Positions 6,859 to 49,890 of a DNA stretch of 64,000 nt are shown piece after piece (positions within the stretch are counted from its first letter, which is position 1; every line of letters starts with the position of its first letter). The stretch lies in assembly GCA_003514055.1 (NCBI GenBank), contig DOSG01000002.1, positions 79,825-143,824 of the forward strand, read 5' to 3'. The DNA comes from Candidatus Yanofskybacteria bacterium. Lineage in GTDB: Bacteria; Patescibacteriota; Minisyncoccia; 2-02-FULL-40-12; GWA2-44-9. The notes beneath the pieces are model-generated. The model was not told the DNA's origin. It did not search any database and saw nothing but the letters and a program-made list of their open reading frames with translations. A program made the position numbers and the translations under genes.

Positions 6859-7387
6859 GTGGAGACTATTCCTTCGAAATAGCGCTATAATGTTATTAAT
6901 GAAGGATAAAAGAACCTATGCCGATCGTCGCGAGGAATTGATAAAAGCGGTCGCCAAAAGGCGACGCAAAGTCAAAAGTCTAGCGATAGAATATAAGGGT
7001 GGCAAATGCCAAGTTTGTGGATATTGTAAGTATCAAGGAGCTCTTGATATGCACCACATATCTGATAAGCAATTTGGCATCGGAGATAAAGGATATACGA
7101 GATCTTGGGAAAAGATTAAACAAGAACTTGATAAATGTATCCTTGTCTGCGCAAATTGTCATCGTGAGATAGAAGGCGGCATAACGCAGCTTTCCGATCG
7201 AAAGACGGATTGAAACTTTTCGGGATAACGGTGAAGCCCTAGTCCGCCGACTGGTGGATGGGTAATACCGTGGGAACCTCGTAAATTTTACGAGGGCGCC
7301 GTAGAGACTAGATACCGAAACGCCTAAATCGTAAGGTAAGATAGGGCGAAGATATAGTCCACCCCGTGTCGTAAGACATGGATTACG
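6859..7387 (+). mobile_element. Group I self-splicing intron (approximate boundaries) with an ORF in its 5' part
   Basis: Conserved core elements in the expected order: R-like gtagagactaga (~7296-7307), S-like aagatatagtcc (~7341-7352). P8-like hairpin cgccta...tagggcg between them. P9-like GNRA hairpin ccgtgtc-gtaa-gacatgg, then G before the 3' exon. Confidence 0.6.
6890..7213 (+). CDS. HNH homing endonuclease (intron-encoded)
   Basis: CQVCGYC...DMHHISDK...N...VCANCH pattern (CxxC...HH...N...CxxCH); 107 aa; lies entirely inside the intron. Confidence 0.75.
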   Translation: MLLMKDKRTYADRREELIKAVAKRRRKVKSLAIEYKGGKCQVCGYCKYQGALDMHHISDKQFGIGDKGYTRSWEKIKQELDKCILVCANCHREIEGGITQLSDRKTD

Positions 7388-9011
7388 TGTAAGGAGAAGG
7401 TTCCAGGTTCGAGTCCTGGTCGCGGAGCAGAGGGTTCAAACCAGCGCCCGAAAGGGCGTTTTGGTTTGGATTAGAGCCACTTTTTGGCGGTTCTAAAGTT
7501 TGTTTTTGTAGTTTTGCCTGTTCTGCCCTTTCTTTTATCCTTAATATCGGTTTTTTATAGAATTTGCCCAATATCTCGCCGTTTAAAGTAAGGTTCGAGA
7601 ATATAAGCGACATGAACTCTCTTTTTGCCGGTATGTCGTCTTTTAGTGATTCGTATATTTCTTTTGATTTTCTGGCCAATTCCATAAAAGAACTACCGAG
7701 TAAGAGGAAATGAGTATTGTTTTGTTTTAATTTTGATTTTTCATCGATAACCCTTTGTTGATCCTGGTCCCACGTTTGGATATTACGGTTGTATTGGTCT
7801 TCAGATATCTTGCCGTCTAGCTTGTCTATATAGCAACGATCCTTGCGTTGCTGAAGAATCTGGAATTGTCGATCCAGATTCTCGGTTGCATTTTCAAAGT
7901 AATTAACTTCTTCCCGATGATTGCTTTTTAGTACTTCCTGGACCAGGGCAATTTCGTCCGGATCAAGCCCTTGGTGGAACCAGTCGAATATCTCCTTGGC
8001 CTGGGCCTCTATCCGGTCCTCACGTGCGAATTTTAGGCCCCTACAACCCTTATAGCCGTTACATCGGTAATAGGTTCGCCCTTTATGTATCTCACCACAT
8101 ACGGTGCCACCACAGGCCTTACAGTAAACCAACTGCTTAAAGAGGTGGAAGTGCTTCCTGTGTTTAGGCGTTGTTTTGGAATGCATGAGGGACTGCACCT
8201 GGTCAAATAACTCTTTCGATATCAATGCCGGGTGCTTGGCCGGATAGATAACACCTTTCCAAACCATCGAACCGTAGTAAAAGGGATCAGACAAAAGTTC
8301 TGCAATCCGGCTTTTAAGTATCTTTCGGCCGGACTCATTTCTTAAACCTTCTCGATATAACAGCTCAACAAGTGATTTTAGTGAATGCTGACCGGAAGCA
8401 TACAATTCAAACATACGACGAGCATACGGCGATTTATTCTCATCAACTATGTGGATCTTCCTGCCCTTTTCTCCGATGGTCTTATAGCCGATAGGGGGCC
8501 TAGTGGGAAGCCAGCCCTCTTTCAGTTTTTGTGCCTGGCCCTTTTTAACCTCCTCGGACAGGTTGTTTGAGTAAAACCTAGCAATAGCAATTTTCATATC
8601 CCATACCAGATTCTCGTGGGCCTTGGTATTCTTATTTGCTATGAAGTTCTCTTTTACGAAGTGTACTTTTCGGTTTTCATTCTCAAAAACCCAATCGCCC
8701 GCTATAATTGCTTCTTTTTGATTTCGAGTCATCCGATCGATTTTCTCGCATAAGATGTTGCCAGTATTATGGTCAACAGCATAATCAATCATCTGCTTAA
8801 ATATCTTTCGTGTCTGTTTTCCGCTTGCTGATTCTGGTACAGAGAACTCCTTAACGATCTTAAGGTTTTTGGAAGCAGCATAAGTCCTGAGCAACTCCGA
8901 TTGCGCGGCTAGGGAATACCCTTCTTCTGCCTGTTCTTTAGTGGATACCCGGCAATATAGAATTGCACAGTCGACTCTTATTCTTTGTATTTTTTGGTTT
9001 TCGGAAGCCAT
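7383..9011 (-). CDS. Large serine recombinase / integrase
   Basis: N-terminal resolvase catalytic domain (AILYCRVSTKEQ, YSLAAQ); recombinase domain; Zn-ribbon CKACGGTVCG...YYRCNGYKGC; coiled-coil C-terminus; 3' end overlaps the tRNA 3' exon on the opposite strand. Confidence 0.85.
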   Translation of the reverse strand: MASENQKIQRIRVDCAILYCRVSTKEQAEEGYSLAAQSELLRTYAASKNLKIVKEFSVPESASGKQTRKIFKQMIDYAVDHNTGNILCEKIDRMTRNQKEAIIAGDWVFENENRKVHFVKENFIANKNTKAHENLVWDMKIAIARFYSNNLSEEVKKGQAQKLKEGWLPTRPPIGYKTIGEKGRKIHIVDENKSPYARRMFELYASGQHSLKSLVELLYREGLRNESGRKILKSRIAELLSDPFYYGSMVWKGVIYPAKHPALISKELFDQVQSLMHSKTTPKHRKHFHLFKQLVYCKACGGTVCGEIHKGRTYYRCNGYKGCRGLKFAREDRIEAQAKEIFDWFHQGLDPDEIALVQEVLKSNHREEVNYFENATENLDRQFQILQQRKDRCYIDKLDGKISEDQYNRNIQTWDQDQQRVIDEKSKLKQNNTHFLLLGSSFMELARKSKEIYESLKDDIPAKREFMSLIFSNLTLNGEILGKFYKKPILRIKERAEQAKLQKQTLEPPKSGSNPNQNALSGAGLNPLLRDQDSNLEPSPYT

Positions 9012-9109
9012 TTCATTAAATTAGGGGTTGATTACATTAACGCTTAAGTTTGGAATCAATTCAAGTCTGTCATAATGGCTAATTTAGGTGGGATAAGCCT
9101 GGAGCAACT

Positions 9110-9245
9110 TTCCTAATATCCTTTATTTAAGCCATTTTTATAATGGTTTGATTCTCGACTTTTCCCAGCGGGTGATTTTCCGAAAAGTCTGATTTATGGC
9201 TAAAAAGTTCTGACCGGCTTTCCAAATATCCTTTATTTAAGCCAT
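9110..9245. repeat. Two ~32-bp direct repeats (tttccYaatatcctttatttaagccattDtt) about 100 bp apart, just upstream of the recombinase gene
   Basis: repeats read at ~9110-9142 and ~9213-9245. Confidence 0.5.
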
Positions 9246-9350
9246 TATTCTAGTAATTAATTTTAGACTTTTTATCTAAGACATTTTTATAACTTTTTCT
9301 TACTATTCTTATTTGTGTAAGCATAACCTTACGGGGCTATGCGATTATGT

Positions 9351-9749
9351 TTATAGGGGCTGTGAATTTTTATTTACACGTCTATCAACTACGCCGGTCT
9401 TATCCACAAATACCAGTGGTCTATATACGCAGACTGATCCATTTGTTGCTCTCTGGCTTTCTAGAAACCCCTTCTTAACGATTTTCTTTATGTTATTCAA
9501 GATGGTAATCCTGCTATTTTTTGAATTTAGGCCGATATCTTTTGCGATAGTATTGTGACTTACTCTGCACTGCCCCTTATTAAAAGTTCTCATAAGTATA
9601 GTTGCGTAGACTCTCATCTCTGAGTTTGTGAGTCCGCTACCCTTTATGATTTGATTAGGGACCATTGTAAACCCAAGCTCCTCCCATTTTTTAAGGCCTA
9701 ACCTTGATATTAGTTTTTGCAGAGCTATAGTTCGTCCTATTTGTTGCAT
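9351..9749 (-). CDS. Winged-helix/HTH DNA-binding protein (Rep- or repressor-like)
   Basis: HTH-like stretch SHNTIAKDIGLNSKNSRITILNNIKKIVKKGFLE; lies next to the recombinase. Confidence 0.4.
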   Translation of the reverse strand: MQQIGRTIALQKLISRLGLKKWEELGFTMVPNQIIKGSGLTNSEMRVYATILMRTFNKGQCRVSHNTIAKDIGLNSKNSRITILNNIKKIVKKGFLESQRATNGSVCVYRPLVFVDKTGVVDRRVNKNSQPL

Positions 9750-10037
9750 GGTTTATTTGTTGCCTCTTTTTTTGCTTGATTCTTAATAAGCCAACTAAAA
9801 AGCTGACATAGTGTTCTAAGATGTTCTTCCGCTTCAAGATCGGATTCAAAATCCTTCCCATATATTTTGCGGTATAGCTCTCGCATCTTTTTAATTTGTT
9901 CTTTAGATATAATCAAAGCCGCCGGCTCATGGGGATAAACCGGCGGCTTTGGTCCCCATGAAAATAAATAACCTGATGGTTATACCACCAGGTTATTCTG
10001 TCTTAACGACGATGACTAAGTATTAAGTGAGGTACAC

Positions 10038-10802
10038 TTACTTTCGCCTTTTTTTCTCGATGGAGATGATTTTTCCGATACTGCCTGCATCTATTGAGCG
10101 CGTCAGCTTTTCGGGGAACATTTCGCAGACTAGGTTTGCGAGTTTTTTTCTCGACATGTGACGATTCCTATAGATGAAGTCGGTCATCTCGCGACTCCCT
10201 TCTCTTCTAGTCCTGACCTGGAGTAGCCTGCTTTCTTCCCCAGATCTTTCTCCAGCGATGCGTTTCCAATTCTTGCTTATAAAGTCGATCAGATCCCGCT
10301 TGGTTGCATCTTTGTGAACCCCGATTGCGATAGGATACTCATCGCCGCGATTAACCACTTCTTTTAGTAAGGCCATGGGGCTGTTCCCGTTATCTGGGTC
10401 AAACCCACCGTCGTAAGTTGATAGATCTTCAGCTAGGTTAAAAATCTCAATAACCCCATAATCAAAATCTGGTTTTAGGTGGACAAATCTCTCTATGTCA
10501 TTATAGAAAATATATACCTTAGACAGGAACACAACGGCCCAATGTTTTATTGGAAACCCTGAGATCAGGTTCTCTATATCTCGGTTCAACTCTCTGTATA
10601 AGTCCCCGGACCCAAAATTAATCGGGAATGTTTGCTGGTTTATCTCTGGTAGTTCTTTATCTGAAATTGAAATCCCACTTGGAAGAATCCCATATTTTAC
10701 CCTAAGCTCTCTAGCGGTTTTTTGGAACGAGTCAGTTCTTAAGAAATCTCTAAAGGTATTAATAACCTTTTTGTTTGATTTATTTTTCCCCATGATTATC
10801 AC
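10038..10802 (-). CDS. Hypothetical protein (254 aa)
   Basis: long ORF with no recognisable motif. Confidence 0.45.
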   Translation of the reverse strand: MIIMGKNKSNKKVINTFRDFLRTDSFQKTARELRVKYGILPSGISISDKELPEINQQTFPINFGSGDLYRELNRDIENLISGFPIKHWAVVFLSKVYIFYNDIERFVHLKPDFDYGVIEIFNLAEDLSTYDGGFDPDNGNSPMALLKEVVNRGDEYPIAIGVHKDATKRDLIDFISKNWKRIAGERSGEESRLLQVRTRREGSREMTDFIYRNRHMSRKKLANLVCEMFPEKLTRSIDAGSIGKIISIEKKRRK

Positions 10803-11076
10803 AACCGTAGCGATTTTTAGTCAATTTTTCAAGTAGAGCAAGACCTTTTAATCATTGAGTGTTTGTGGTAAATTTAGCGTAACAATTCAGCCTAAACCAA
10901 TCGGGGCAACCTGATTAGCATGGCATCAAATACCGACGAAGATACTGAACCCATCGTTCAGGCTCCTTCGTCGGTCCATACCCGAAAGGGTGTGGGAGAG
11001 TGAAAGCTCTCGGCCTAGCGGTGGGTTTAGTGTTATACAAAACCCTGAGTCCCCATTAGCCGAGGCAAAATATACC

Positions 11077-11547
11077 ATGGGGACGAATCTCAAACGAATC
11101 ACGGTGAGCCTATTGCTAGTTGTTGGTGTGGTTGTACTTATCTCGGCATTGTCCTCTGGTGAACCAGGGAAGGATGTGGAAACAGTTGCCGCGTTTGATG
11201 TCCCAATGCTTGTTGGCAAGGACCTCTCCGGACTTGTAGCCGAATTGGGCATACCAGATAATAACAGCGAGCCGAATATGCTCCAAATAGAAAATGGGAC
11301 AAAAACATGGGAAAAAAGCTGGGAACGGGGCGACTATTTTCTTATGGCAACTTACGATGTAAAAACTAGAAACGTTATAGACTTGTTTATAGGTGCTGAA
11401 ACCGACGCCGGGTTTGTTCAGTTCCGGGATACAAAAAATATCTTGAAGGTAGGTGGACTATCCTCGAGTGCTACTGGTTACTCGGTCGAATTTGTAAAAG
11501 CAAGAAATACTCCGGGTTATACAGGTGCTGTTATTAAGGAGAGGTAA
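11077..11547 (+). CDS. Hypothetical membrane-anchored/secreted protein
   Basis: internal ATG followed by a hydrophobic segment (ITVSLLLVVGVVVLISAL). Confidence 0.45.
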   Translation: MGTNLKRITVSLLLVVGVVVLISALSSGEPGKDVETVAAFDVPMLVGKDLSGLVAELGIPDNNSEPNMLQIENGTKTWEKSWERGDYFLMATYDVKTRNVIDLFIGAETDAGFVQFRDTKNILKVGGLSSSATGYSVEFVKARNTPGYTGAVIKER

Positions 11548-11655
11548 ATAATGGGAGGATATCCCGACAAGGTTCAATACGATCTTGTCCAGTATCCATG
11601 TTGATTTTATTGTCTATTTCTGCGAGGATGTCTTCATCTAAATAATTTCAGCAAT

Positions 11656-12795
11656 ATGACGAGAAAAATTAATAAAATTGAGCTTCCAAAACCAATAGAC
11701 AAGAAAGAGATTACCTTGGATTCTTTAGTGTTAGACGACGACAATCCTCGCTTTGGGAGTACCCTGAACGGCAAAAGTCAGGAAGAAATCATAGAGAAAC
11801 TTGCCAAAGAGAAAAATCTATATGAGTTAATAGAATCATTCAGACAGAATGGTTACTACGAAGCAGAACCCCTGCTAGTTATCGGAGATAAAAAAAGTCC
11901 TGGTAAGTATATCGTCATTGAGGGCAATCGACGCGTAGCAGCTTTAAAAATACTTTTTGACTCAAACCTTTTAAAAAAATTCGGCTTTTCTAGTCCAAAC
12001 AATTTAAAACTTGAGGATTCTCTTGTGGAAAATCTCACCAAACACATTCCTGTGCAGGTTTATGGTAGTCGAAAAGATCTATGGAGCTACTTGGGCTTCA
12101 GGCATATTAAGGGGCCAATGCCGTGGGATCCTTATAGTAAGGCGCTTTATATTGTTAGTTTACATAAAGCTGGTACGTCAATAGACGAGATTGTTGAGCG
12201 CATAGGAGATCAAAATGCTCTAGTCGTGAAGATGTTTAATGGCATAAAGGTACTACAACAGGCAGAGCGCAAAAACCTTATTGAACCGGAAAATATAGCA
12301 AAGTTCGCCTTTTCCCATTTGTATACCATTCTTGGATACACAAATACGCAAAAGTTTCTTGGTCTTAAAATAAAAAGTGGGACTCTCTTAAAAGACAACC
12401 CCATACATGAAAAATATATTAAAAATCTGAAGTTACTCATTGAATTTATTTATGGTGATAAGGAGGGTAAATTCAAGTCGGTTATTCGGTCACAGAATCC
12501 TGATATCCGCCAATTAGACGCAGTCTTAAGCGACCCGAAATTAATAGCTGACCTAAAGGTAAACGTGAATCAGGTCGGATCTTTGAGTAATGTCTTTGCT
12601 GCTACCGGAGAGGCAGAGCAGATAGTCCCAGACTTAATAGCTGATGCTTTGGCAAAACTTAAAAAAGCAGCTGCCAACTTTCATACATATAAAAAAGTTG
12701 ACTCTTCCACAAGATCAATGATCGATGAAATAGCTGAGCTTGCCATAGATTTAACAAACAGACTCGATGCCAAGAAAAAAGGTAAAAAAAGCTAG
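11656..12795 (+). CDS. ParB-like / DUF262-like NTPase-nuclease domain protein
   Basis: DDDNPR box followed by YIVIEGNRRVAALK, resembling ParB Box I-II and the DUF262 DGQQR motif; 379 aa; 3' end overlaps the next gene by 29 nt. Confidence 0.5.
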   Translation: MTRKINKIELPKPIDKKEITLDSLVLDDDNPRFGSTLNGKSQEEIIEKLAKEKNLYELIESFRQNGYYEAEPLLVIGDKKSPGKYIVIEGNRRVAALKILFDSNLLKKFGFSSPNNLKLEDSLVENLTKHIPVQVYGSRKDLWSYLGFRHIKGPMPWDPYSKALYIVSLHKAGTSIDEIVERIGDQNALVVKMFNGIKVLQQAERKNLIEPENIAKFAFSHLYTILGYTNTQKFLGLKIKSGTLLKDNPIHEKYIKNLKLLIEFIYGDKEGKFKSVIRSQNPDIRQLDAVLSDPKLIADLKVNVNQVGSLSNVFAATGEAEQIVPDLIADALAKLKKAAANFHTYKKVDSSTRSMIDEIAELAIDLTNRLDAKKKGKKS

Positions 12796-13747
12796 ATCTT
12801 CTGCTCCTACTTTACGCCAGCTGATATCATTACCAAACCAAGCAGACGAGTTATCAGAGTTAGCAGATTGGGTAGAAGTTTCAGCATGGATTCAATCTGA
12901 CTATCAAGTTAGTCGGGAAGAGGTACTGTCTGTTTTTTCGTTTGCATCGGATAGTAATGATGCAGAAGAAAAAGTTTCAAAGTTGTGGGACGAATTAAAA
13001 ACCCGTGCTGTAATTCTCCAAGATCATTATCCCTTTGCGTTATCTCCCGGGGAAGAGATTTTTCAATTTAAAAATAACGACCGCTACAAGGCTTATCTTT
13101 TTTGTTTACTTCTTTCGTTTGTTGGACTTACAAAAATAAACTCCAGAACATTTCCCGCTGCAAGTATTTTTGAAGAGTTATGCTCTTCTGTCGCTCAGAA
13201 ATATATTTCAAGTGAGTCAGTTCCTGCGAAAAGCTTACATTTTGGTTGGCCGCGTAATAGCTGGCCCAGAAGACAAAGATCACTATTAAAGGCCCTGCCA
13301 GAGCTTATAAGGACCCTCGGAGATGGAGAAAATCTAATTGATGGTGTCAGAAGTGGACGAAGTGCTCATACAGGAGATGCGGGTCTAGATATTGCTGCTT
13401 GGCGTCCATTCGTAGATGAGAGAAGGGGCATGTTGGTATTTTTAGGGCAGTGTGCAACTTCTAGGGACCATAATAGTTACATGAAGAAATTAGGAGACCT
13501 CGATTCATTCCTACTAGAGTGTGTTAACTTTAATTTTCCAAACACCCTAGGGTTGTTTATACCCCATATCCTGAGCGACAACGATCAATCCCACAAGGAG
13601 TACTGGGAGAGAATAAAGAGAAGGAAGAATATCCCATTTGATAGAATTAGAATTGCTCTTTATGGCGAGTCTTGGTCAAACTCTAAACTAGATACTTTTT
13701 TAAGTAGTCAACGTAAAAAATTGAAACAGGAGCACTCTCTTACTTAA
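12767..13747 (+). CDS. Hypothetical protein, putative nuclease partner (DUF1524/His-Me-finger-like, tentative)
   Basis: C-terminal IPHILSDNDQSHKEYW...N...SNSK resembles the EHIxPQ...W...N...N pattern of DUF1524; translationally coupled to the ParB-like gene. Confidence 0.35.
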   Translation: MPRKKVKKARSSAPTLRQLISLPNQADELSELADWVEVSAWIQSDYQVSREEVLSVFSFASDSNDAEEKVSKLWDELKTRAVILQDHYPFALSPGEEIFQFKNNDRYKAYLFCLLLSFVGLTKINSRTFPAASIFEELCSSVAQKYISSESVPAKSLHFGWPRNSWPRRQRSLLKALPELIRTLGDGENLIDGVRSGRSAHTGDAGLDIAAWRPFVDERRGMLVFLGQCATSRDHNSYMKKLGDLDSFLLECVNFNFPNTLGLFIPHILSDNDQSHKEYWERIKRRKNIPFDRIRIALYGESWSNSKLDTFLSSQRKKLKQEHSLT

Positions 13748-14885
13748 GAACCTTGATCGTAAAGTCGTACTCTCCAGAGTCATCGTATTTTTTGCCGAAC
13801 ATTCTAGCCTGCCGCACTTTTTTAAAAGGAGAGTAGCTTTCTTTTATTAAACTAAGTTTTTGATTGCTCCTTTTTATGCTTTTCTGGATAATTTTTCGCA
13901 AAGGGTAATTATCTTTTGTGGATTGACCTATTCTACATACTATAATCCCATCTTTACTCATTATTTTAATAAGTGACTTCCATGTGTCAGAAAGAAAATC
14001 TATATATTTTTCTTGAGATGCAATTCTGTCATCTTTGGTTATCTTGCCTCGTGATGGAAATGGCTCGAATCCTAAGAACCATAGCCTTAGCCACTGGTCT
14101 TCCTCGTAAGATGTTATTTTTAAATATGGCGGAGACATTACTACTAGCGCGGCTTTCTTACTGGTGATCTTCTTTATGTTTCTATCAATATCTCTAACAT
14201 CTCCTAAGATACAATGCCCACGAGATTTAAATTTATGCTGTTTAGAGTTTGATAGTCTGAAATTTGTCCTGTCTCGTAAAACAGAGAAGGTGTCTATATG
14301 AGGAGCCTTCATTTTATTTTTGTGCCAGAATCTAACTGAGTAGCCTGGCTTCGGGCAATACGTATGGGGCAGGTTATTGCTTAAGTAAACCTTTTTTGTT
14401 TTTTGTGTTTCCCCGTGCAAGTAGCTAAGACATAATGTTTTAATAAAAAGACCCTCCTTTGTTTGCTCTTTTTTAAGTCGGTTCCTTAACCATAAAATCT
14501 GAAGTAGGGTTTTGCTATAGTATGCATGGCGGAAAAAAAGCGGCAACCTGGAAGCTTCTTCTCTGATAGAATTCTTATCGGCCGACTCAAACTCCTTCTC
14601 TAGTTTTTCGATGTATTTTAAGCAGGTAGCCAGTTTAATGGGCCTTGTTTTTGCTTGAGTAATCGCAAACGCCACAGGGTTTATATCATTGGCTATCGCC
14701 GCTCTTCCCAGTATTCTTGCTTCCAACAAGGTGGTTCCTCTACCTGAAAAGGGGTCTATAACTAAATCTCCTGGCTTTGAATGTTTTAAGATGGCGTCTC
14801 TAGCAAATTCTGGAGGGAACATGGCAAAATAAGGGCATAGTGCATGCATTGCATCATTGTAAGTTATTGAGGATATAATTTTCAT
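13740..14885 (-). CDS. DNA methyltransferase (N6-adenine or N4-cytosine, amino-MTase)
   Basis: AdoMet motif I DLVIDPFSGRGTT near the N-terminus and catalytic motif IV SPPY (VVMSPPYL) about 210 aa downstream. Confidence 0.8.
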   Translation of the reverse strand: MKIISSITYNDAMHALCPYFAMFPPEFARDAILKHSKPGDLVIDPFSGRGTTLLEARILGRAAIANDINPVAFAITQAKTRPIKLATCLKYIEKLEKEFESADKNSIREEASRLPLFFRHAYYSKTLLQILWLRNRLKKEQTKEGLFIKTLCLSYLHGETQKTKKVYLSNNLPHTYCPKPGYSVRFWHKNKMKAPHIDTFSVLRDRTNFRLSNSKQHKFKSRGHCILGDVRDIDRNIKKITSKKAALVVMSPPYLKITSYEEDQWLRLWFLGFEPFPSRGKITKDDRIASQEKYIDFLSDTWKSLIKIMSKDGIIVCRIGQSTKDNYPLRKIIQKSIKRSNQKLSLIKESYSPFKKVRQARMFGKKYDDSGEYDFTIKVLK

Positions 14886-15770: not shown

Positions 15771-15900
15771 GCCGACTAACGTCGGCTTTTTTATTCCAAA
15801 CAGATTCTGACATCAATGCATCAACGGAGCTAGCAGCGCTGCTATACGAAAGTTGACAAATGCCACGAGGGTGGTATTTTAGACTTAGTTTGCTCACAAA
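15771..15900 (+). promoter_or_regulatory. Intergenic module A: hairpin terminator (gccgactaacgtcggc+T7), conserved element ccaaacagattctgacatcaatgcatcaacggagc, then promoter TTGACA / ATGCCAC-gagg-GTGGTAT / TATTTTAG
   Basis: a homologous module occurs at 22086-22185. Confidence 0.6.
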
Positions 15901-15909
15901 GGATAGGCA

Positions 15910-16113
15910 ATGGCCAAACTGTCCATTAACGATATAAGACGGCGGATTAAACAAGCATCAGAGACCGGGCAAGCCTCGTGCGACATCGGGATTGAAGGGG
16001 CATTTCTAGTTCTCTTTGCTGGGATGTCCTTGAATGAAAGAAAACATATATCGAAACGAAAAAGTGAGGGGCGAAGAAGGCCAAACTCAAGCTCAAAGAA
16101 AAGAGCTCGCTGA
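15910..16113 (+). CDS. Small basic protein (67 aa), hypothetical
   Basis: ORF directly downstream of the operator-bearing promoter. Confidence 0.35.
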   Translation: MAKLSINDIRRRIKQASETGQASCDIGIEGAFLVLFAGMSLNERKHISKRKSEGRRRPNSSSKKRAR

Positions 16114-16228
16114 CCGAGAACGGTCATTTTTTAATCCAAACAGATCCTGGCATTCTTTACTCAGCGGAGCACCTATAAAAAGCCAGATAATACTGGCTTT
16201 TTGGTTGGACCTAATGTGGACGTTAGAA

Positions 16229-16927: not shown

Positions 16928-17099
16928 GATAATAATTCTACTATTAAATTTATTAAATGGTAGGGACGGCTAGATTAAATATTCAGATATTCTCTCAAGT
17001 CGGGGATATGCAAAAAATTCTCTTTTTTGATCACAGTTCTAACGTCATTCACAATGCGGAGCATTTTTCAGAGAGTGGCTTAAAACACCACTTTTTGAT

Positions 17100-17221
17100 A
17101 TTGCAAATATTAGGATTTTGTGCTATAATATAGACAATGTTGCACCATCTAATCTGGATGCGTGCAGGCAGACCGTAAACCAACGATCCAGCACAGCTGG
17201 ACGGATGGAAGGAGAGCGGCT
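17100..17221 (+). promoter_or_regulatory. Promoter TTGCAAAT...TGCTATAAT plus a conserved 52-nt leader (hairpin ccagc-aca-gctgg; RBS ggaaggagag) ahead of paralogue 1
   Basis: nearly identical to 23146-23264. Confidence 0.55.
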
Positions 17222-17650
17222 ATGGCAACTATGGTGTTGCTCGACAACAATGGCGAGAAAGTACGGACTCTCGGGTCGATCATCAATCCGAACCCGGATC
17301 TGGTCATCCCGCAGGGGTGGATGCTCAGTTGGGAAAATCAGTTCATGGAGGTCACTGCGACCGATCGTCTGAAAAATGCCGTGCTTACGCACGGGAAGGC
17401 CCGCGTCCTGGTCAATGTCGTGATGCAGACGCTCGTGGTCAGAATCGAGAGCCCGAATGTGAGGGATCTCGTGGAGGCAATCGACCTCATGGTTCAGTAC
17501 GTCGGGGGCGAGGTCGCTACGTTCAGCCCCTCCGCCGCCAACAATTCGTTCGTCGGCGGCATCAAGAACGACCTCGTCTTTCTTCGAAACATGGCGGTAC
17601 GGGCCATTCGCTCGCTACGGCAGCGAACTGGCTTCAAGATCGCGCGCTAA
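17222..17650 (+). CDS. GC-rich hypothetical protein, paralogue 1 (~142 aa)
   Basis: start MATMVLLDNNGEK after the RBS; 180 nt identical to the 23218-23398 copy, then diverged; own big-stem terminator downstream. Confidence 0.6.
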   Translation: MATMVLLDNNGEKVRTLGSIINPNPDLVIPQGWMLSWENQFMEVTATDRLKNAVLTHGKARVLVNVVMQTLVVRIESPNVRDLVEAIDLMVQYVGGEVATFSPSAANNSFVGGIKNDLVFLRNMAVRAIRSLRQRTGFKIAR

Positions 17651-17855
17651 GCGCTCACACCTCGCATCGAGACAGGGGATCCCAATCCTCGTCTGGTGCG
17701 GGGTCCTTTGTTTTTATACGTATCCAAGACTAATTAAATCTCCCCGAATTCTTACTCAATCCAGCGTTCTGAATGCGTTCCGTAGGCAGAGCAAAGCTTG
17801 ACAATAGCACTAGATGGTGCTATTGTTATTTTAACCTTAAAACTAGGAGAGTGTC

Positions 17856-18059
17856 ATGCGAATAGTTGCCGATGCGTCAAAACGTACATTGAAATTAACT
17901 GCCGAAACTGATATTGACGAGGATGAATTGATAAGAGCGAACTACGTAGTGGTAAGTTCCAAAAAGTGGTACCAATTTTGGAAAAAATCACCAACCGTTA
18001 AATTGACAATGGCTGGAGATAAGAATAAATATCTTCAGGCAATAGAAATCTCTTTCTAG
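17856..18059 (+). CDS. Small hypothetical protein (67 aa)
   Basis: promoter TTGACA-ATAGCAC-N6-GTGCTAT upstream; RBS aggaga; terminator gacccacagtgtgggtc follows. Confidence 0.4.
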   Translation: MRIVADASKRTLKLTAETDIDEDELIRANYVVVSSKKWYQFWKKSPTVKLTMAGDKNKYLQAIEISF

Positions 18060-19322: not shown

Positions 19323-19494
19323 TGAGCAAGCTCAGAAATCACCTGCCCGCGAGAGCCCGCACATTACGTGCCCGCCTCGCGGGCTCTCTCTTTTTATACA
19401 AACGCATATTTTATTAAATCATTGTGAATACTAACCCAATCCAGCGTTCTGAATGCGTTCCGTAGGCAGAGCTGACAGCATTATTGCAAGTATA

Positions 19495-19524
19495 TTGACA
19501 AATACCACGCGAGTGGTATTCTAG
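19495..19524 (+). promoter_or_regulatory. Promoter with operator: TTGACA-a-ATACCAC-gcga-GTGGTAT-TCTAG
   Basis: perfect 7-bp inverted repeat between -35 and -10. Confidence 0.6.
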
Positions 19525-19556
19525 GTCAAGTTGATCGTTCTCTGAGGTAAGAGGCG

Positions 19557-19742
19557 ATGAATAAAAAACCACGTTCACCATATCGCAAGAAGCCTTTGCC
19601 TTGTCCTTTTGGATGTCCTGGGTGTTTAGGGAGATTTTTGGGCAAAAAATGTGAATGTTCGAATACGCTGTCAACGTGTCAGCGTGCTCGCAAAGGCGAG
19701 TGCAATGAGTGCCATGCCTGTCGTTCATGTCGAGATGCATGA
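19557..19742 (+). CDS. Cysteine-rich small peptide (61 aa, 12 Cys)
   Basis: CPFGCPGCLGRFLGKKCECSNTLSTCQRARKGECNECHACRSC; RBS gaggtaagagg; terminator caaaccgccatattggcggttt follows. Confidence 0.45.
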   Translation: MNKKPRSPYRKKPLPCPFGCPGCLGRFLGKKCECSNTLSTCQRARKGECNECHACRSCRDA

Positions 19743-19856
19743 TCAAACCGCCATATTGGCGGTTTTTATTTTCTAGATAGATCCTGATTTTATCCAGCGG
19801 AGTAGCACTTGATTATATCGTGTAAATGTGGTATAATTACTATACGGGGTGGCAAA

Positions 19857-22211: not shown

Positions 22212-22421
22212 ATGCCCGACATTCGTAAGTGTGCAGTCTGTCGCGTTGAGTTTGACTTCGACGAGTCCGGGCTAGAGGGTCCAAACGACGTCGTGGTCTG
22301 CGGCGCGGTCTGTGCCAAAAAGTCTGCCGCCAGTCGTGGAAGCGAATATGTGATCCACGACGGCGAGGGGGCGGTAGTTGAGACGAACATCACTCCTGGC
22401 ATCAAGACTCACCGCTGGTAA
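22212..22421 (+). CDS. GC-rich small Cys protein (zinc-ribbon-like CxxC...CxxxC), 69 aa
   Basis: CAVCRVEF...VVVCGAVC; RBS ggagg. Confidence 0.45.
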   Translation: MPDIRKCAVCRVEFDFDESGLEGPNDVVVCGAVCAKKSAASRGSEYVIHDGEGAVVETNITPGIKTHRW

Positions 22422-23062: not shown

Positions 23063-23264
23063 TCTCAGTTAGGTTATAGAATTGATGCCCAAGAGGAGAG
23101 GGGCGCGTCTTTCAAAAAGTGCCTTAAATGGGCACTTTTTGGTATTGCAAACGTTACAGTTTCGTGCTATAATATAAATAATGTTGTGGCGTCTAACCTG
23201 GGCGTCGCGAACAGACCGTAAACCAACGATCCAGCACAGCTGGACGGATGGAAGGAGAGCGGCT

Positions 23265-23693
23265 ATGGCAACTATGGTGTTGCTCGACAACAATGGCGAG
23301 AAAGTACGGACTCTCGGGTCGATCATCAATCCGAACCCGGATCTGGTCATCCCGCAGGGGTGGATGCTCAGTTGGGAAAATCAGTTCATGGAGGTCCTCG
23401 CAAAGGACCACCTGAACAACGCCGTACTAACGCATGGGAAGGCTCTCGTTCTGGTCACCGCTATGATGAGTACGGTTGTGGTCCGGATTGAGAGCCCGAA
23501 CGTGAAGGACCTGGTCGAGGCGATCGACCTCGTGACCCGGTACCTTGGCGGCGAGGTTGCCACCTTCAGCCCCAACGCCGCCAACAATTCGTTCATTGGC
23601 GGTATCAAGAATGACCTCATCTTCCTTTGGGGGAAGACGACTCAGGCCATTCGCTCGCTACGGCAGCGGATTGGTTTCAAGATCGCACGCTAA
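23265..23693 (+). CDS. GC-rich hypothetical protein, paralogue 2 (~142 aa)
   Basis: same promoter, leader and first ~45 codons as 17222-17650. Confidence 0.6.
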   Translation: MATMVLLDNNGEKVRTLGSIINPNPDLVIPQGWMLSWENQFMEVLAKDHLNNAVLTHGKALVLVTAMMSTVVVRIESPNVKDLVEAIDLVTRYLGGEVATFSPNAANNSFIGGIKNDLIFLWGKTTQAIRSLRQRIGFKIAR

Positions 23694-37907: not shown

Positions 37908-38564
37908 CTACTTTGAGAGGATGAGGGCTATCTTTATGGTGGCATCCATGGTCTTGGCAGAATTATTCCAATCTGCCGCTGCTTGCTTGAGCGTATCAAA
38001 AGAATAAATCATACCATTGCCTTGAGTGGTGCCTGGATCATTTACTATGAATCCAGAGGCATTGTAGCCGCGCACCACGATCATGTGGTAAAAAGGCCCT
38101 GAGTCCGTGTAGATCGGCAATAATCGGGCATTTATTGGCAGGAGAACGACATGGCCTCTGCTCAGCTCTTTCTTTAAATCCTTTTCGGTGTAATCTCTTA
38201 TTTGCTTAACGGTTATGTCAAATACTTTTTCAGCCATTCGAGAAGTGGTGTAAGCGCCAGTGTCGGCGTTGTAGCCAATATTGTTTGCCTCCCATTTTCT
38301 TAGTTTGGCTATATATTCTTGGGCTAGGGCTACTGTTAACTCATTATCTCTGTTGCCTTCGAAATAGGCGTGAGCCATGGCGATGCTTGTCTCTTCGCAA
38401 TCTTCGTTACGGTCCCATCTCCCCGTCGGAGCTTGATCAGTAAAGGGTACGGCCAGAACGAGGGTCTCGGGTAGTGGCCAGTTAGTCATTACGATGATCA
38501 GTCCGATAAGGCCCAGTCCGAGCAGGCTCATCGTGCGTCTGTGCGTCGAAAAAATATTTTGCAT
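37908..38564 (-). CDS. Peptidase C39-like (C39_2) domain protein, secreted
   Basis: LAVPFTDQAPTGRWDRNEDCEETSIAMAHAYF; signal anchor. Confidence 0.5.
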   Translation of the reverse strand: MQNIFSTHRRTMSLLGLGLIGLIIVMTNWPLPETLVLAVPFTDQAPTGRWDRNEDCEETSIAMAHAYFEGNRDNELTVALAQEYIAKLRKWEANNIGYNADTGAYTTSRMAEKVFDITVKQIRDYTEKDLKKELSRGHVVLLPINARLLPIYTDSGPFYHMIVVRGYNASGFIVNDPGTTQGNGMIYSFDTLKQAAADWNNSAKTMDATIKIALILSK

Positions 38565-38573
38565 ATTGGTGGA

Positions 38574-39338
38574 TTATTTTGAAACAACGATCATGACGGA
38601 TTTGCTTTCGTCGATTGTGTCGATGGCATGATCCCAATCAGCCGTGGCATTGTTAATGGTCGAGAATGAATATAGATAATTCTCGCCGTTTCTTGTGCCA
38701 GAATCATTGGTGATAATTTTTGTGGCTGTATAGCCGCGAATTACTAACATATGATAAATTGGCCCCGGTTGCTTATAGTTCGGATTATTGAGTTTGCGGC
38801 CATTAACCGGAATTATAAGTACTTTACCTGCTAGTAGGGCCGATTTAATATCGTTTTCGGTAAAGTTTTTTACTAGGTTAGTTTTAAGGCCGTATACCGA
38901 TTCAATCATTTCTGCAGTTTCTACTGCGTCAGTATCTAAATAGTAGCCGAAATTCGTATCCTGCCACTTAGTCAATTTGGTAATTTCTATTTCCACCTCG
39001 GCGGCCGGAATTTTTTCTCTTGTGTCGCCGGCAAAGTATGCCCCGGCCATTATGGCGCTAGCTTCTTCGCAGGCTTCATTGTGAAGTTGGTCCCAATTGC
39101 CGATCGGCGCCTGGGGCGTGAAGGGAACAGCGAGAGAAAAACTCAGAGGAGTTTCTGAGGGTTTACTTGCCGATGGACTTGGGCTTGGTGAAACTAATGT
39201 GCCGGTCGGCGTAGGTGAGATACTGGGACTTGGGGTCTGTGTTGGTTGTGGATTTTTACCATATCCAAACAGTACAATCCCGACTATTGCAACGACAAGA
39301 ATTACGCCGATTATATTGATTGATTTGTTGATGGTCAT
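38574..39338 (-). CDS. Peptidase C39-like domain protein, tandem paralogue with a P/S/T-rich linker
   Basis: VPFTPQAPIGNWDQLHNEACEEASAIMAGAYF. Confidence 0.5.
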   Translation of the reverse strand: MTINKSINIIGVILVVAIVGIVLFGYGKNPQPTQTPSPSISPTPTGTLVSPSPSPSASKPSETPLSFSLAVPFTPQAPIGNWDQLHNEACEEASAIMAGAYFAGDTREKIPAAEVEIEITKLTKWQDTNFGYYLDTDAVETAEMIESVYGLKTNLVKNFTENDIKSALLAGKVLIIPVNGRKLNNPNYKQPGPIYHMLVIRGYTATKIITNDSGTRNGENYLYSFSTINNATADWDHAIDTIDESKSVMIVVSK

Positions 39339-41830: not shown

Positions 41831-42700
41831 ATGAAAATATTTGGAAAAATTTTGATGGTCGCGCTGGTAGTTTCTTTTGTCCTTGACGTGTCTGGGGCTA
41901 GTCTAGCTGCGACTACGATAAATCTTGGCGCGGCTGGTAATTTTGCAGTACTCGGAAGTTCAACGATTACCAATATCGGGTCTACTGTTGTAAACGGAGA
42001 CCTAGGATTGAATCCTGGTGCTTCGGTTACGGGATTTCCGCCTGGAGTAGTCAATGGTACGCAGCACATAACTGATGGCGTGGCTGCTCAGGCGCAGATA
42101 GACCTAGTTACGGCTTATAATTTGGCTAGCACGCAAGCTGGTGCCGTAATAATATCTGGCGATCTGGGTGGATTGACCCTGACGCCGGGAGTATATAATT
42201 CTGCGACATCAATCGGCCTTACTGGCGGATTAACCCTAGATGGTCAGGGGAACCAAAATGCAGTGTTTATTTTTCAGATTGGCTCTACGCTAACTACAGC
42301 ATCGGGAAGTACGATAAATCTTATAAATGGCGCTCAAGCTTGTAACGTTTTTTGGCAAGTTGGTTCTTCTGCTACACTAGGAACAAATTCAAGCTTTTCC
42401 GGGACTATCTTGGCATTCGCGTCTGTCACGGCGACTACTGGTGCGTCAATCAACGGCAGGGTGTTGGCACGGAATGGCGCGGTAACTCTCGACACAAGCC
42501 CGATCACTAGGCCAGTATGTATAGTAGCGACACCAACGCCAACTTCTTCGTCAACGCCGATACCAACGGTATCGCCTACAATAACACCAACTCCAACACC
42601 TTCGCCAACACCGACAGCGTCGCCTACGGTAACTCCGGCTCCTACGGTTACCCCAACTCCAACACCGAAGTTGCCAAATACGGGTTTCGGCCCAAATTAA
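41831..42700 (+). CDS. Secreted DUF3494 (ice-binding-like) beta-solenoid protein with P/T-rich stalk and LPNTG sorting motif
   Basis: NLGAAGNFAVLGSSTITNIGSTVVNGDLGLNPGASVTGF; C-terminal ...TPTPKLPNTGFGPN then a stop. Confidence 0.6.
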   Translation: MKIFGKILMVALVVSFVLDVSGASLAATTINLGAAGNFAVLGSSTITNIGSTVVNGDLGLNPGASVTGFPPGVVNGTQHITDGVAAQAQIDLVTAYNLASTQAGAVIISGDLGGLTLTPGVYNSATSIGLTGGLTLDGQGNQNAVFIFQIGSTLTTASGSTINLINGAQACNVFWQVGSSATLGTNSSFSGTILAFASVTATTGASINGRVLARNGAVTLDTSPITRPVCIVATPTPTSSSTPIPTVSPTITPTPTPSPTPTASPTVTPAPTVTPTPTPKLPNTGFGPN

Positions 42701-42748: not shown

Positions 42749-43309
42749 TTGTATACACGAATTATAAGATGGTGGTTATCGGGTATAGTTTTACTTGGAC
42801 TTCCGGCCATATTTTTTATATATAGTTTGGCATATCCCGGGTTAAATCAAAAAGGCGATAGAATTGGGATCCCAGTACGGATTAAAATCGTAAGCATTGG
42901 TGTTGATGCGGTGATTGAGCAGGTGGCGATAACAGATGATGGGCTCATGGATGTTCCAAAGTTCCCGGTAAATACTGGATGGTATAGTTTGGGCCCTCGT
43001 CCAGGAGAAAGCGGCAGTGCGGTGATTGATGGTCATGTCGACGATGAACGTGGCGATAAGGCAGTATTCTCAGATTTACATAATCTAAGACCGGGAGATA
43101 AGATTGAGGTTCAAGACGATAGGGGCTTGCTAGTGTCATTTATAGTGCGCGAAAGTCGTCGATATGATCCAGATGCAGACTCTTCTGAAATATTTATATC
43201 CAATGATGAAAGATCGCACCTAAATCTAATTACCTGTGAAGGTACTTGGGACGAAGCATCTAAAAGCTATTCCCAACGATTAGTGGTATTTACCGACAGA
43301 GAGATGTGA
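42749..43309 (+). CDS. Sortase
   Basis: catalytic His (IDGHVD) and TLxTC Cys (NLITCEG); N-terminal TM segment. Confidence 0.8.
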   Translation: MYTRIIRWWLSGIVLLGLPAIFFIYSLAYPGLNQKGDRIGIPVRIKIVSIGVDAVIEQVAITDDGLMDVPKFPVNTGWYSLGPRPGESGSAVIDGHVDDERGDKAVFSDLHNLRPGDKIEVQDDRGLLVSFIVRESRRYDPDADSSEIFISNDERSHLNLITCEGTWDEASKSYSQRLVVFTDREM

Positions 43310-45987: not shown

Positions 45988-46017
45988 TTGACGAATACCA
46001 CGTAGGTGGTATTTTAG
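45988..46017 (+). promoter_or_regulatory. Promoter with operator: TTGACG-a-ATACCAC-gtag-GTGGTAT-TTTAG
   Basis: same architecture as 15853-15880 and 19495-19524. Confidence 0.55.
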
Positions 46018-46085
46018 TTTAAGCTCATTATCGTGGAAGGCGAAGATTATGAAGACAATCGCAAATCCTTCTTTCGAGAAGACTT

Positions 46086-46415
46086 ATGGCACATAAGCCA
46101 ATTGCTCCTAGAGCCTCAAGGCGTGTAGGAAGTTTTTTGGTGATAATGATTACTAGAGCGATCAGCAGGTACATCGCTCAAGTGATTGAGGAAGAACCTC
46201 TAGTATTGAAAGTTGAAGAATCGGGGCCCTACTCTAGATTAAAAGGTGAAGACTTTGTAATAATGGAGAATGATTCTCTGCGAGCTCAAGGAGATGATGA
46301 GACTGCACAAGAACTTCTTCGAGAAGCGGTTCGACGTGGCAAACCGCTTCGTTCTGGCCTGAAAAGCCTAGGAGTTAAGAATGGAAAATTGCATGAGATT
46401 CTGCCAGTAGAGTAA
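46086..46415 (+). CDS. Hypothetical protein (109 aa)
   Basis: ORF downstream of the operator promoter; terminator 46432-46490. Confidence 0.4.
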   Translation: MAHKPIAPRASRRVGSFLVIMITRAISRYIAQVIEEEPLVLKVEESGPYSRLKGEDFVIMENDSLRAQGDDETAQELLREAVRRGKPLRSGLKSLGVKNGKLHEILPVE

Positions 46416-48507: not shown

Positions 48508-49830
48508 ATGAAAAACACAGCAGTATTCCTATTAATCTTGGTCGTTATTACAGGAGGAATCTTTAGTAATTCGTTAATCGCCAGCGCTTCGGTGCCAACA
48601 TTATCAATCAATCCGACTGGTAGCGGCGACTCGGTTCAAATAAGTGTGTATGGTGATGCTAATTCAAGCGTGGTTTTGTATTATCAGCAATCAGGCTACT
48701 ACAGTGTCCAATCTCAATATATTGGATCGACCAATTACAGTGGCTATCTATCGACTACTATTAATAAATCGACATACAATATAAATTCTGGAAGTTCGGT
48801 TTACGTCGTAGTTAATAATCAGCAATCTTCAAGTGCTAATTGGCCATATTCATATGGCTATAATTATGGCGGGACGCCATCTGTCAGTCAGACGAGCATC
48901 TCTTTAACTATCGGGCAATCTACTAACGTGACAGTCTCTGGCGGATCTGCGCCTTATAGTATGTACCCTGGTTCGCCAAATTTGTATCAGGCTTCAATAA
49001 GCGGGAATACGCTTACTCTTGTGGGGCAGAATACGGGCTCAGATACGCTCAGAATTTGTTCTTCGGGAAGCACGACTAGCTGTGCCAATCTTTACATAAA
49101 CATAAATACCAGTGGTACTGGTTATAATAGCCAGGTGTCATTGGGACAAAATAGCGTTTCTATTAATTCTGGAAGCAGTGCCACGATAAGCATTTATGGT
49201 AGCGGAAGCTATTATATATCGAGTAACTCTAATCCTAATATTGCCACTGCCACGATAAGCGGGAATATTATGACCGTTTATGGTGTTAGCTACGGTAGTG
49301 ATAATATCACTGTCTGCCAGAGTGGTGGCCAGTGCGCAGTCTTATACGTATCAGTTGGATATGGGAATAACAACAATTACTCATCCGTATCTTTCAGCCA
49401 GGTGAATCCAGTTCTATCGATTGGACAAGTTATGAATGTGTCAGTCTATGGAGGGGATACTACTAATTACAATGTTGCTTATAATTCTAATACGAGCGTA
49501 GTGCAATCTAGCTTGAGCGGAGGAGCCTTGACGATAACCGGTTTGACCAATGGATCTAGTGCTATCGTTGTCTGTTCGTCGGCCCGTAGCTGTGCGGCAA
49601 TATCTGTGACCGTTGGCTCTGGTAGCGTATTGGGAGCTCAGAATAACTGGACATATTGTGCCGCTGAGAATGGTTATTGTAATTTTTATGGAACTCAGTT
49701 AGTTAGGTACGGAGCGAATGGGGTTTATTATTATAGAACTTTATCTGGCGGTGTCACCTGTACTAACGCCGTATTCGGAGATCCGATATTCGGCGTTGCT
49801 AAGCAATGTAGCTATGGTGGGAGTAGATAG
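48508..49830 (+). CDS. Secreted S/G/T/N-rich protein with about four ~90-aa internal repeats (Ig-like)
   Basis: signal peptide; repeated ...ISGNTLTL.G...GSD...VCSS....C... units. Confidence 0.5.
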   Translation: MKNTAVFLLILVVITGGIFSNSLIASASVPTLSINPTGSGDSVQISVYGDANSSVVLYYQQSGYYSVQSQYIGSTNYSGYLSTTINKSTYNINSGSSVYVVVNNQQSSSANWPYSYGYNYGGTPSVSQTSISLTIGQSTNVTVSGGSAPYSMYPGSPNLYQASISGNTLTLVGQNTGSDTLRICSSGSTTSCANLYININTSGTGYNSQVSLGQNSVSINSGSSATISIYGSGSYYISSNSNPNIATATISGNIMTVYGVSYGSDNITVCQSGGQCAVLYVSVGYGNNNNYSSVSFSQVNPVLSIGQVMNVSVYGGDTTNYNVAYNSNTSVVQSSLSGGALTITGLTNGSSAIVVCSSARSCAAISVTVGSGSVLGAQNNWTYCAAENGYCNFYGTQLVRYGANGVYYYRTLSGGVTCTNAVFGDPIFGVAKQCSYGGSR

Positions 49831-49842
49831 GCTTGCCATGAC

Positions 49843-49890
49843 TAATTAAGACAAACAAAAATACCACCGAGGTGGTATTTTTGTTTGTCT
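49843..49890 (+). terminator. Perfect 18-bp-arm hairpin (gacaaacaaaaataccac-cgag-gtggtatttttgtttgtc) whose tip is the ATACCAC-N4-GTGGTAT motif
   Basis: read directly from the sequence. Confidence 0.55.

Follow-up and report, generated by a model that had tools for sequence, protein, structure and literature searches.

An unannotated gene for a small cysteine-rich, putatively zinc-binding protein behind a shared palindromic promoter in Candidatus Yanofskybacteria

The subject of this analysis is a short open reading frame (ORF) at positions 19557-19742 of a stretch of 64,000 nucleotides from contig DOSG01000002.1 (assembly GCA_003514055.1) of a Candidatus Yanofskybacteria bacterium, a member of the Candidate Phyla Radiation (CPR); the whole stretch is called the window in the following. 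The ORF was recovered on the plus strand with exactly the translation quoted in an earlier note on this DNA. Likewise, the view taken there of a stand-alone transcription unit encoding a basic, cysteine-rich peptide holds, as the frame is accompanied by its own promoter, Shine-Dalgarno sequence and terminator. Both the promoter with its perfect ATACCAC-N4-GTGGTAT site and the terminator, a stem-loop and T-run directly 3' of the ORF, could be confirmed. The number of cysteines given before, 12, has to be corrected to 10. The following features make up the locus:

19495..19522, plus strand: sigma-70-type promoter with -35 hexamer TTGACA (19495-19500), 16-nt spacer, TG at 19514-19515 and -10 hexamer TATTCT (19517-19522)
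19502..19519, no strand assigned: perfect 7-4-7 palindrome ATACCAC-GCGA-GTGGTAT within the promoter spacer
19534..19558, plus strand: hairpin in the 5' untranslated region, in which AUCGU/UCUC pairs with AGAG/GCGAU (-12.4 kcal/mol, z = -2.95)
19557..19742, plus strand: coding sequence of the 61-aa protein with ten cysteines, TGA stop at 19740-19742
19745..19772, plus strand: intrinsic terminator with a 9-bp stem (AAACCGCCA/TGGCGGTTT), a 3-nt loop and a T-run
19414..19746, minus strand: antisense ORF of 108/110 aa, publicly annotated as a hypothetical protein and judged a non-coding shadow

Purifying selection acts on the peptide frame, and 19557-19742 is a genuine protein-coding gene. The peptide cassette has one relative, represented by two metagenome contigs of the Joint Genome Institute (L005 and L006) which are identical across the locus. 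The alignment of window positions 19476-19796 with 5920-6243 of L005 reaches from just 5' of the -35 hexamer to just past the terminator and shows 82% nucleotide identity. The L005 orthologue comprises 63 aa, is 83% identical (BLAST) and keeps all 10 cysteines and the histidine in spite of an in-frame 6-nt insertion between C16 and C20; its stop lies at the same position with a different codon (TAA vs TGA in the window). The frame, on whose conservation in relatives the earlier note had made its proposal depend, is thus intact in the one relative. The 27 nucleotide differences are distributed 8/4/15 over codon positions 1/2/3, an excess at the third position (binomial P = 0.014), and the Nei-Gojobori method yields dN 0.08 (nonsynonymous), dS 0.56 (synonymous) and a dN/dS ratio of 0.15 for the peptide frame. 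This ratio is close to those of neighbouring cassette genes (0.16 for a 374-aa protein, 0.21 for a 69-aa protein), whereas the sole stop-free antisense frame gives 1.8. Moreover, window and relative hardly differ between promoter and ATG, with both promoter hexamers identical, while the DNA further upstream diverges.

The contrast between the ratios of 0.15 and 1.8 identifies the peptide as the gene and the annotated antisense ORF as its shadow. Public records contain either no call at the peptide locus or the antisense 108-aa ORF, which is found in Candidatus Yanofskybacteria bacterium GW2011 genomes (KKR37740.1, KKR41021.1, KKT15478.1, KKT53106.1) and also among IMG and ENA gene calls. This antisense ORF spans the peptide promoter, no Shine-Dalgarno sequence is visible 5' of its start and, judged from its sequence, it is apparently a shadow cast by the real gene of 61 aa. 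The exact 61-aa sequence is absent from a collection of 15 billion proteins; taken together with the empty or antisense-called locus, this means that the peptide gene is unannotated. Several public assemblies encode the neighbouring 374-aa protein on the same contig, among them GCA_001795995.1 (MGLH01000001.1) and Rifle-aquifer metagenomes. A similar strand ambiguity was observed elsewhere in the window between ORFs 15894-16127 (minus strand) and 15910-16113 (plus strand).

An in-frame stop two codons before the ATG rules out an upstream alternative start, and the ATG at 19557 is therefore the sole possible start of the gene. A Shine-Dalgarno-like GAGG/AGAGG is located 3-13 nt 5' of it. The hairpin at 19534..19558 covers the AGAGG as well as the AU of the start codon, and its counterpart in L005 (5978-6002; 11 bp, -10.8 kcal/mol, z = -2.0) is kept despite several substitutions. 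Such a structure over the ribosome-binding site may damp translation and thus be a possible means of translational control. At the other end of the gene, the terminator stem-loop (19745-19765) and its T-run reach -12.7 kcal/mol (z = -3.7); the L005 version is weaker and bulged, with a U-run still following. From the near-consensus sigma-70 promoter to this terminator, the gene would be transcribed as a monocistronic RNA of ~240 nt.

The promoter scores 10 of 12 consensus matches plus the extended TG, with an inferred transcription start at ~19529. Its palindrome extends into an interrupted 36-nt inverted repeat, TTGAC...GTCAA (19495-19529), and this longer repeat occurs in both genomes. The right arm GTGGTAT coincides with the extended -10 element (TGnTAT), so that the mirror-image left arm is the part which needs explanation. 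With up to 2 mismatches, the palindrome pattern occurs 4 times in the window vs 0.09 expected, and none of 100 shuffled sequences reached 4. The complete architecture TTGAC-N2-3-ATRCCAC-N4-GTGGTATT is realized in 3 promoters of the window and in 5 within the 12 kb of L005, each of the latter preceding a different small gene. Altogether, the promoter module is reused before at least 7 other unrelated small genes. The related elements in the window are:

15853..15884, plus strand: sister promoter TTGACA-AATGCCAC-GAGG-GTGGTATTTTAG upstream of a 67-aa ORF (15910-16113)
17798..17831, plus strand: variant promoter ATAGCAC-N6-GTGCTAT with covarying arms, upstream of a 67-aa ORF (17856-18059)
45988..46019, plus strand: sister promoter TTGACG-AATACCAC-GTAG-GTGGTATTTTAG before an orphan ORF of 109 aa (46086-46415)
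49852-49884: terminator-like hairpin (GACAAACAAAAATACCACCGAGGTGGTATTTTTGTTTGTC) with a 17-bp stem that includes a AATACCAC-N4-GTGGTATT copy, between the genes for a 440-aa protein (48508-49830) and a GGDEF protein (49953-50537)

The arms are invariant except for one A/G position, and the central 4 nt vary (GAGG, GCGA, GTAG, GAGA, GGGG, GTAA, TTAA). Across 11 elements, the 8-bp arms are complementary in 98.9% of cells, including two double-sided changes. Outside these genomes, the promoter pattern was met as 5 unrelated singletons in 185,579 GTDB species genomes and not at all in IMG/VR, so that scans for it brought no further members of the family. The motif is real and selected, and it is essentially confined to this lineage.

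Since the promoter module is shared by several cassettes, it is not a peptide-specific or metal-specific switch. Judging from the motif, operator control of the peptide promoter is plausible: a dyad recurs at several promoters, its half-sites are conserved and its centre is free. The simplest model would be a common dimeric repressor occluding the extended -10 element. The peptide would then be co-regulated with the other cassettes and would not respond to a signal of its own. Known repressor operators placed in the spacer or over the -10 element, such as those of lambda/434 CI-Cro, LexA and TetR-type regulators, resemble the 18-bp 7-4-7 dyad, which is likewise repeated with a variable centre. 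In contrast to them, the right half-site is here a promoter element itself, the site is a putative one, and there are hints of a strand-specific hairpin. A promoter of the MerR type was considered owing to the dyad and rejected, since the spacer of 16 nt (16-17 in the sister promoters) is too short; the distortion mechanism of MerR requires 19-20 nt. A divergent promoter on the minus strand was discarded as well, as it would need a 19-nt spacer and its -35-like element is absent from the sister promoters.

The peptide gene is part of a block of small orphan genes which extends from ~15.8 to 23.7 kb, each gene having its own promoter and terminator with conserved intergenic modules in between; a comparable region covers 500-8250 of L005. 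The G+C content of the block is 48% vs 43%. The intergenic modules begin with a post-terminator element (for example TTATTCCAAACAGATTCTGA..GCGGAGC), on which a short palindrome (for example TAGCAGCGCTGCTA) and then the promoter follow; modules placed after terminators also form a second, looser family. One module lies directly in front of the gene under study:

19437..19472, plus strand: upstream inter-cassette module CAATCCAGCGTTCTGAATGCGTTCCGTAGGCAGAGC, identical to 17757-17792 (2 exact copies vs 0 expected)

The cassettes common to window and L005 (the peptide, 374-aa and 69-aa genes) differ in order and neighbours. Their synonymous divergence (pS 0.39-0.50) is lower than that of two housekeeping genes (0.84-0.88, saturated), and their protein identity of 77-83% exceeds the 55-64% of the same two genes. 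In view of this lesser divergence, the transfer of the cassettes between lineages is younger than the split of the genomes. On the basis of these comparisons, the peptide cassette would belong to an island of Candidatus Yanofskybacteria which is variable and horizontally exchanged. Integron cassette arrays offer the closest likeness, with small and mostly orphan genes, conserved repeat modules, variable order and content, a recombinase nearby and cassettes less diverged than the core genome. Nevertheless, integron cassettes are promoterless, whereas each cassette here has its own promoter and terminator, and integrons depend on attC sites and the tyrosine integrase IntI, neither of which was seen here. 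Among the called genes near the peptide locus no tyrosine integrase was found, the recombinase there being of the large serine type (Resolvase/Recombinase).

Two further observations concern the block. Paralogous genes for proteins of 162-170 aa at 17058-17650 and 23102-23693 are 89% identical over 300 nt, share the same TTGCAA-17-TATAAT promoter and lie in direct orientation 6,043 nt apart, thereby bracketing most of the block; as such a pair, they are possible substrates of recombination or deletion events. In addition, the 69-aa cassette protein (22212-22421, plus strand; 77% identity in L005) features CxxC...CxxxC motifs and a weak Prok-RING-like match, making it a second candidate for a zinc-binding micro-protein in the island. 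Two ORFs of 374 aa at 18198 and 25504, considered as possible paralogues, proved to be unrelated.

With regard to its composition, the 61-aa peptide stands out. Its cysteines are residues 16, 20, 23, 32, 34, 41, 49, 52, 55 and 58, accompanied by one histidine, and it ranks first in cysteine content (16.4% vs a mean of 2.2%) among the 358 ORFs of at least 40 aa in the window, with a binomial P of ~5e-5 per ORF, or ~0.017 when multiplied by the number of ORFs. The peptide has a mass of 6.8 kDa, is strongly basic (K+R = 14, D+E = 4, isoelectric point 9.4, net charge +10), includes three aromatic residues and has a grand average of hydropathicity of -0.89. A hydrophobic stretch is missing, the Kyte-Doolittle maximum being 1.12 over windows of 11 residues. 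Because of this lack of hydrophobic windows, the negative hydropathicity and the high isoelectric point, the peptide is taken to be cytoplasmic.

Metal binding is the most reasonable reading of the cysteine array, as far as its spacing can tell. The ten invariant cysteines, together with the histidine, are most likely the ligands of two or three metal ions, by default of zinc. A knuckle-hairpin (C20-P-G-C23 ... C32-x-C34) would form the N-terminal site, and the C-terminal one would be made up of C41/C49-x2-C52-x2-C55-x2-C58. Such a protein would be neither an enzyme nor secreted and probably acts by binding nucleic acids or a partner protein. The features fit the CPxCG-related small zinc-finger motif, whose definition asks for a CPxCx pattern and, at a distance of 7-40 residues, a second CxxC in a protein shorter than 100 aa (PMC2253796). 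The peptide has 61 aa and no Pfam domain, its C20-P-G-C23-L is also kept in L005, and the pairs C49-x2-C52, C52-x2-C55 and C55-x2-C58 begin 25-31 residues past C23. Members of this class such as Brz of Halobacterium salinarum (Tarasov et al., 2008; PMC2253796) resemble the peptide in having 50-70 residues without any other domain and a CPxC knuckle with a further CxxC within 7-40 residues. They also resemble it in being often basic, often missed by annotation and proposed as binders of DNA, RNA or proteins. The class is, though, one of motif and not a homologous family, and no sequence homology of the peptide to any of its members was found. Moreover, these proteins usually have 4 cysteines, whereas the peptide has 10, so that at least two sites or a cluster are to be expected, and they are mostly archaeal, whereas the peptide, with a putative zinc-binding and regulatory role, comes from a CPR bacterium.

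Database searches agree with an orphan protein. A word-indexed search of 5.8 billion proteins gave no match, and a full HMMER scan of 1.84 billion representatives returned only two spurious translations of tandem repeats which repeatedly match GCPGCLGRFLG. GTDB species genomes, IMG/VR and phage or plasmid collections contained no match to the peptide, and there was no family match in Pfam (E up to 0.1), NCBIfam (none relevant, E up to 10), PHROGs or PADLOC. Rfam had no match at the locus. Sequence searches of the PDB with the single sequence and with a two-sequence profile gave only non-significant matches to zinc fingers, foremost a RanBP2-type finger, that of Nup153 (E = 0.22), and a PHD finger. 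A single-sequence AlphaFold2 (AF2) model has low confidence (predicted local distance difference test, pLDDT, 58); in it, a beta-hairpin separates the CPGC motif from CEC. The family of the adjacent 374-aa protein numbers 58 clusters in Parcubacteria and occurs in many unrelated contexts without the peptide. Correspondingly, nine loci from four clusters of that family (L012-L020) do not carry the peptide according to tblastn and a search for the cysteine pattern. A literature search for Yanofskybacteria in connection with cysteine-rich proteins yielded nothing.

In summary, with moderate confidence, 19557-19742 is regarded as an unannotated gene for a small, basic, cytoplasmic protein of the zinc-finger type, transcribed monocistronically from a shared palindrome promoter in an exchanged island. 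Metal binding, intracellular location, repressor and biological role are the parts of it which we infer. Several points weigh against this reading. The tests for selection are based on 27 substitutions from one independent relative, none of the libraries searched yielded a homologue of known function, the AF2 model is unreliable (pLDDT 58) and a Foldseek search with it was uninformative. The C-x2-C-x2-C-x2-C run could alternatively bind an Fe-S cluster or Cu(I). On the side of regulation, half of the palindrome is accounted for by the extended -10 element alone, and no candidate repressor was found among the island ORFs, the sole nearby helix-turn-helix-like protein being a Rep-like winged-helix protein (9351-9749). 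Furthermore, a strand-specific hairpin role in place of a protein operator is hinted at by the three one-sided arm changes, all of them G.U-compatible on the plus strand, by the bias of the loops to G-N-R-R, and by the further palindrome copy in the terminator-like hairpin at 49852-49884.

These last points lead to the alternative to be taken most seriously, although it is still rather unlikely. Here the palindrome, instead of being an operator, would be a strand-specific hairpin element derived from a palindromic repeat family, and the promoter would be constitutive. Such an element could insulate against or terminate read-through, or it could serve as a single-stranded DNA recombination signal which shuffles the cassettes. 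The wobble-compatible arm changes on the plus strand would fit this, as would the variant with compensatory C-G to G-C changes and another loop length (N6), the G-N-R-R bias of the loops, where the orthologous pair GCGA/GTAA are both GNRA, and the TTGAC...GTCAA inverted repeat around the peptide promoter in both genomes. The related 17-bp copy between the 440-aa and GGDEF genes suggests that it and the promoter palindromes belong to one palindromic element family. Nevertheless, given the inferred start site, the hairpin would lie outside the gene's own transcript, a strong terminator is already present upstream of each cassette, and the independent events are few (2-3). Invariant arms with a variable centre are, moreover, exactly the layout of a dimeric repressor site.

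For the product itself, a metallothionein-like buffer is a distinctly unlikely alternative to the zinc-finger type. It would store or detoxify Zn, Cd or Cu by sequestering several of these ions in thiolate clusters, with a metal-sensing regulator having its site at the promoter palindrome. A cysteine content of 16% with CxC and CxxC in ~60 residues speaks in its favour, since SmtA/BmtA and MymT have a similar size and cysteine density (~55-60 residues, ~9-10 cysteines plus histidine, CxC, CxxC), and so does a heavy-metal P-type ATPase at 184-2415, even though this gene is 17 kb away and outside the island. The peptide matches neither the bacterial metallothionein profile (PF02069) nor any other Pfam or NCBIfam family, and metallothioneins do not typically have a net charge of +10 or three aromatic residues. 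The promoter also drives at least 7 unrelated orphan genes and is thus no metal-specific switch, its spacer of 16-17 nt excludes the MerR mechanism, and no metal-sensor gene (ArsR/SmtB, MerR or CsoR) was found among the called genes within 10 kb or the scanned ORFs of the island. Compared with SmtA/BmtA (PF02069) and MymT, the peptide thus differs by its strong cationic charge, its aromatics and its non-dedicated promoter.

The defensin- or bacteriocin-like peptide or precursor of a ribosomally synthesized and post-translationally modified peptide (RiPP), as brought forward in the earlier note, is very improbable. In this reading, the basic proline-rich N-terminus would be a leader or the active part of an exported antimicrobial, and the cysteines would form disulfides or, after maturation, thioethers. 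The cationic, cysteine-rich composition is compatible with it, its N-terminus KKPRSPYRKKPLP may be loosely likened to antimicrobial peptides of the proline-rich kind, a life attached to hosts is assumed for CPR bacteria, and two C39-like peptidase genes are present in the window (37908-39338). The latter are 18 kb from the peptide gene and are not ABC-transporter fusions, and the peptide has no signal peptide, hydrophobic segment or double-glycine (GG/GA) leader. Precomputed Pfam assignments show no radical-SAM, Lan, YcaO or ABC/C39-export gene within 10 kb of the gene, nor was one found on the 12-kb contig of the relative, and the adjacent 374-aa family is no dedicated maturase, as it occurs widely in Parcubacteria without the peptide. 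Consequently, neither the defensin/bacteriocin-like nor the RiPP part of the proposal could be upheld. SCIFF/ranthipeptides (TIGR03973; six cysteines in forty-five residues) share the short length and closely spaced C-terminal cysteines with the peptide. They differ in their cysteine spacing; a profile match (E up to 10) and a nearby radical-SAM maturase were not found for the peptide. SCIFF is a Clostridia-type system.

Least probable of all is a small structured RNA, or a fortuitous ORF conserved through RNA or DNA constraints, for although folding of the 245-nt transcript somewhat surpasses that of shuffled sequences (z = -2.9) and the peptide was never reported by gene caller or database and has one relative only, the folding signal stems mostly from the terminator and the 5' hairpin, there is a good Shine-Dalgarno sequence and no Rfam match, and three-base periodicity, a low dN/dS in the peptide frame alone among the open frames, an in-frame indel, the retention of all cysteine codons and a stop position kept with a different codon all argue for a protein.

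The window as a whole is chromosomal CPR DNA and contains, among other genes, dnaG-rpoD and those of tyrosyl-tRNA synthetase, the CCA-adding enzyme and an efflux system of the MacB type. Directly downstream of dnaG-rpoD, a mobile or defence island (7383-14885) was observed with the following genes:

7383-9011, minus strand: large serine recombinase
9351-9749, minus strand: Rep-like winged-helix protein
11656-12795: PD-Lambda-5_A-like/ParB-nuclease-like protein
12767-13747: unassigned 326-aa gene, possible partner of the PD-Lambda-5-like gene
13740-14885, minus strand: type II N6/N4 DNA methyltransferase

In this mobile-element-like region, a LOOT RNA (Rfam RF03000) was detected at 10889-11011 on the plus strand with 76 bits vs a gathering score of 46, overlapping the start of an ORF at 10990-11547. 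The C39-related genes at 37908-39338 are two tandem Peptidase_C39_2-like genes on the minus strand, not fused to ABC transporters, and lie near a sortase gene (42749-43309) and that of an ice-binding-like protein (41831-42700).

A far-reaching idea, which has to be seen as a long shot, is that the cassettes constitute an undescribed CPR system, in which self-contained cassettes of orphan proteins with palindrome-bearing modules are shuffled, exchanged and co-switched via ATACCAC-N4-GTGGTAT; the 10-cysteine protein could read the palindrome or be an effector against the host cell of the epibiont. By itself, the peptide is probably an ordinary small zinc-binding protein. Still, for the Candidate Phyla Radiation, whose small proteome is very poorly known, it is one more orphan cysteine-rich micro-protein, and its recognition corrects an annotation that has spread through several GenBank, IMG and UniRef records, in which an antisense shadow is called instead of a real small gene. 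More unusual than the peptide is the combination of modular palindrome promoters with exchanged orphan cassettes. The lineage-restricted palindrome promoters, with their defined motif and small regulon, offer a handle on regulation and on accessory-gene flux in uncultured organisms.

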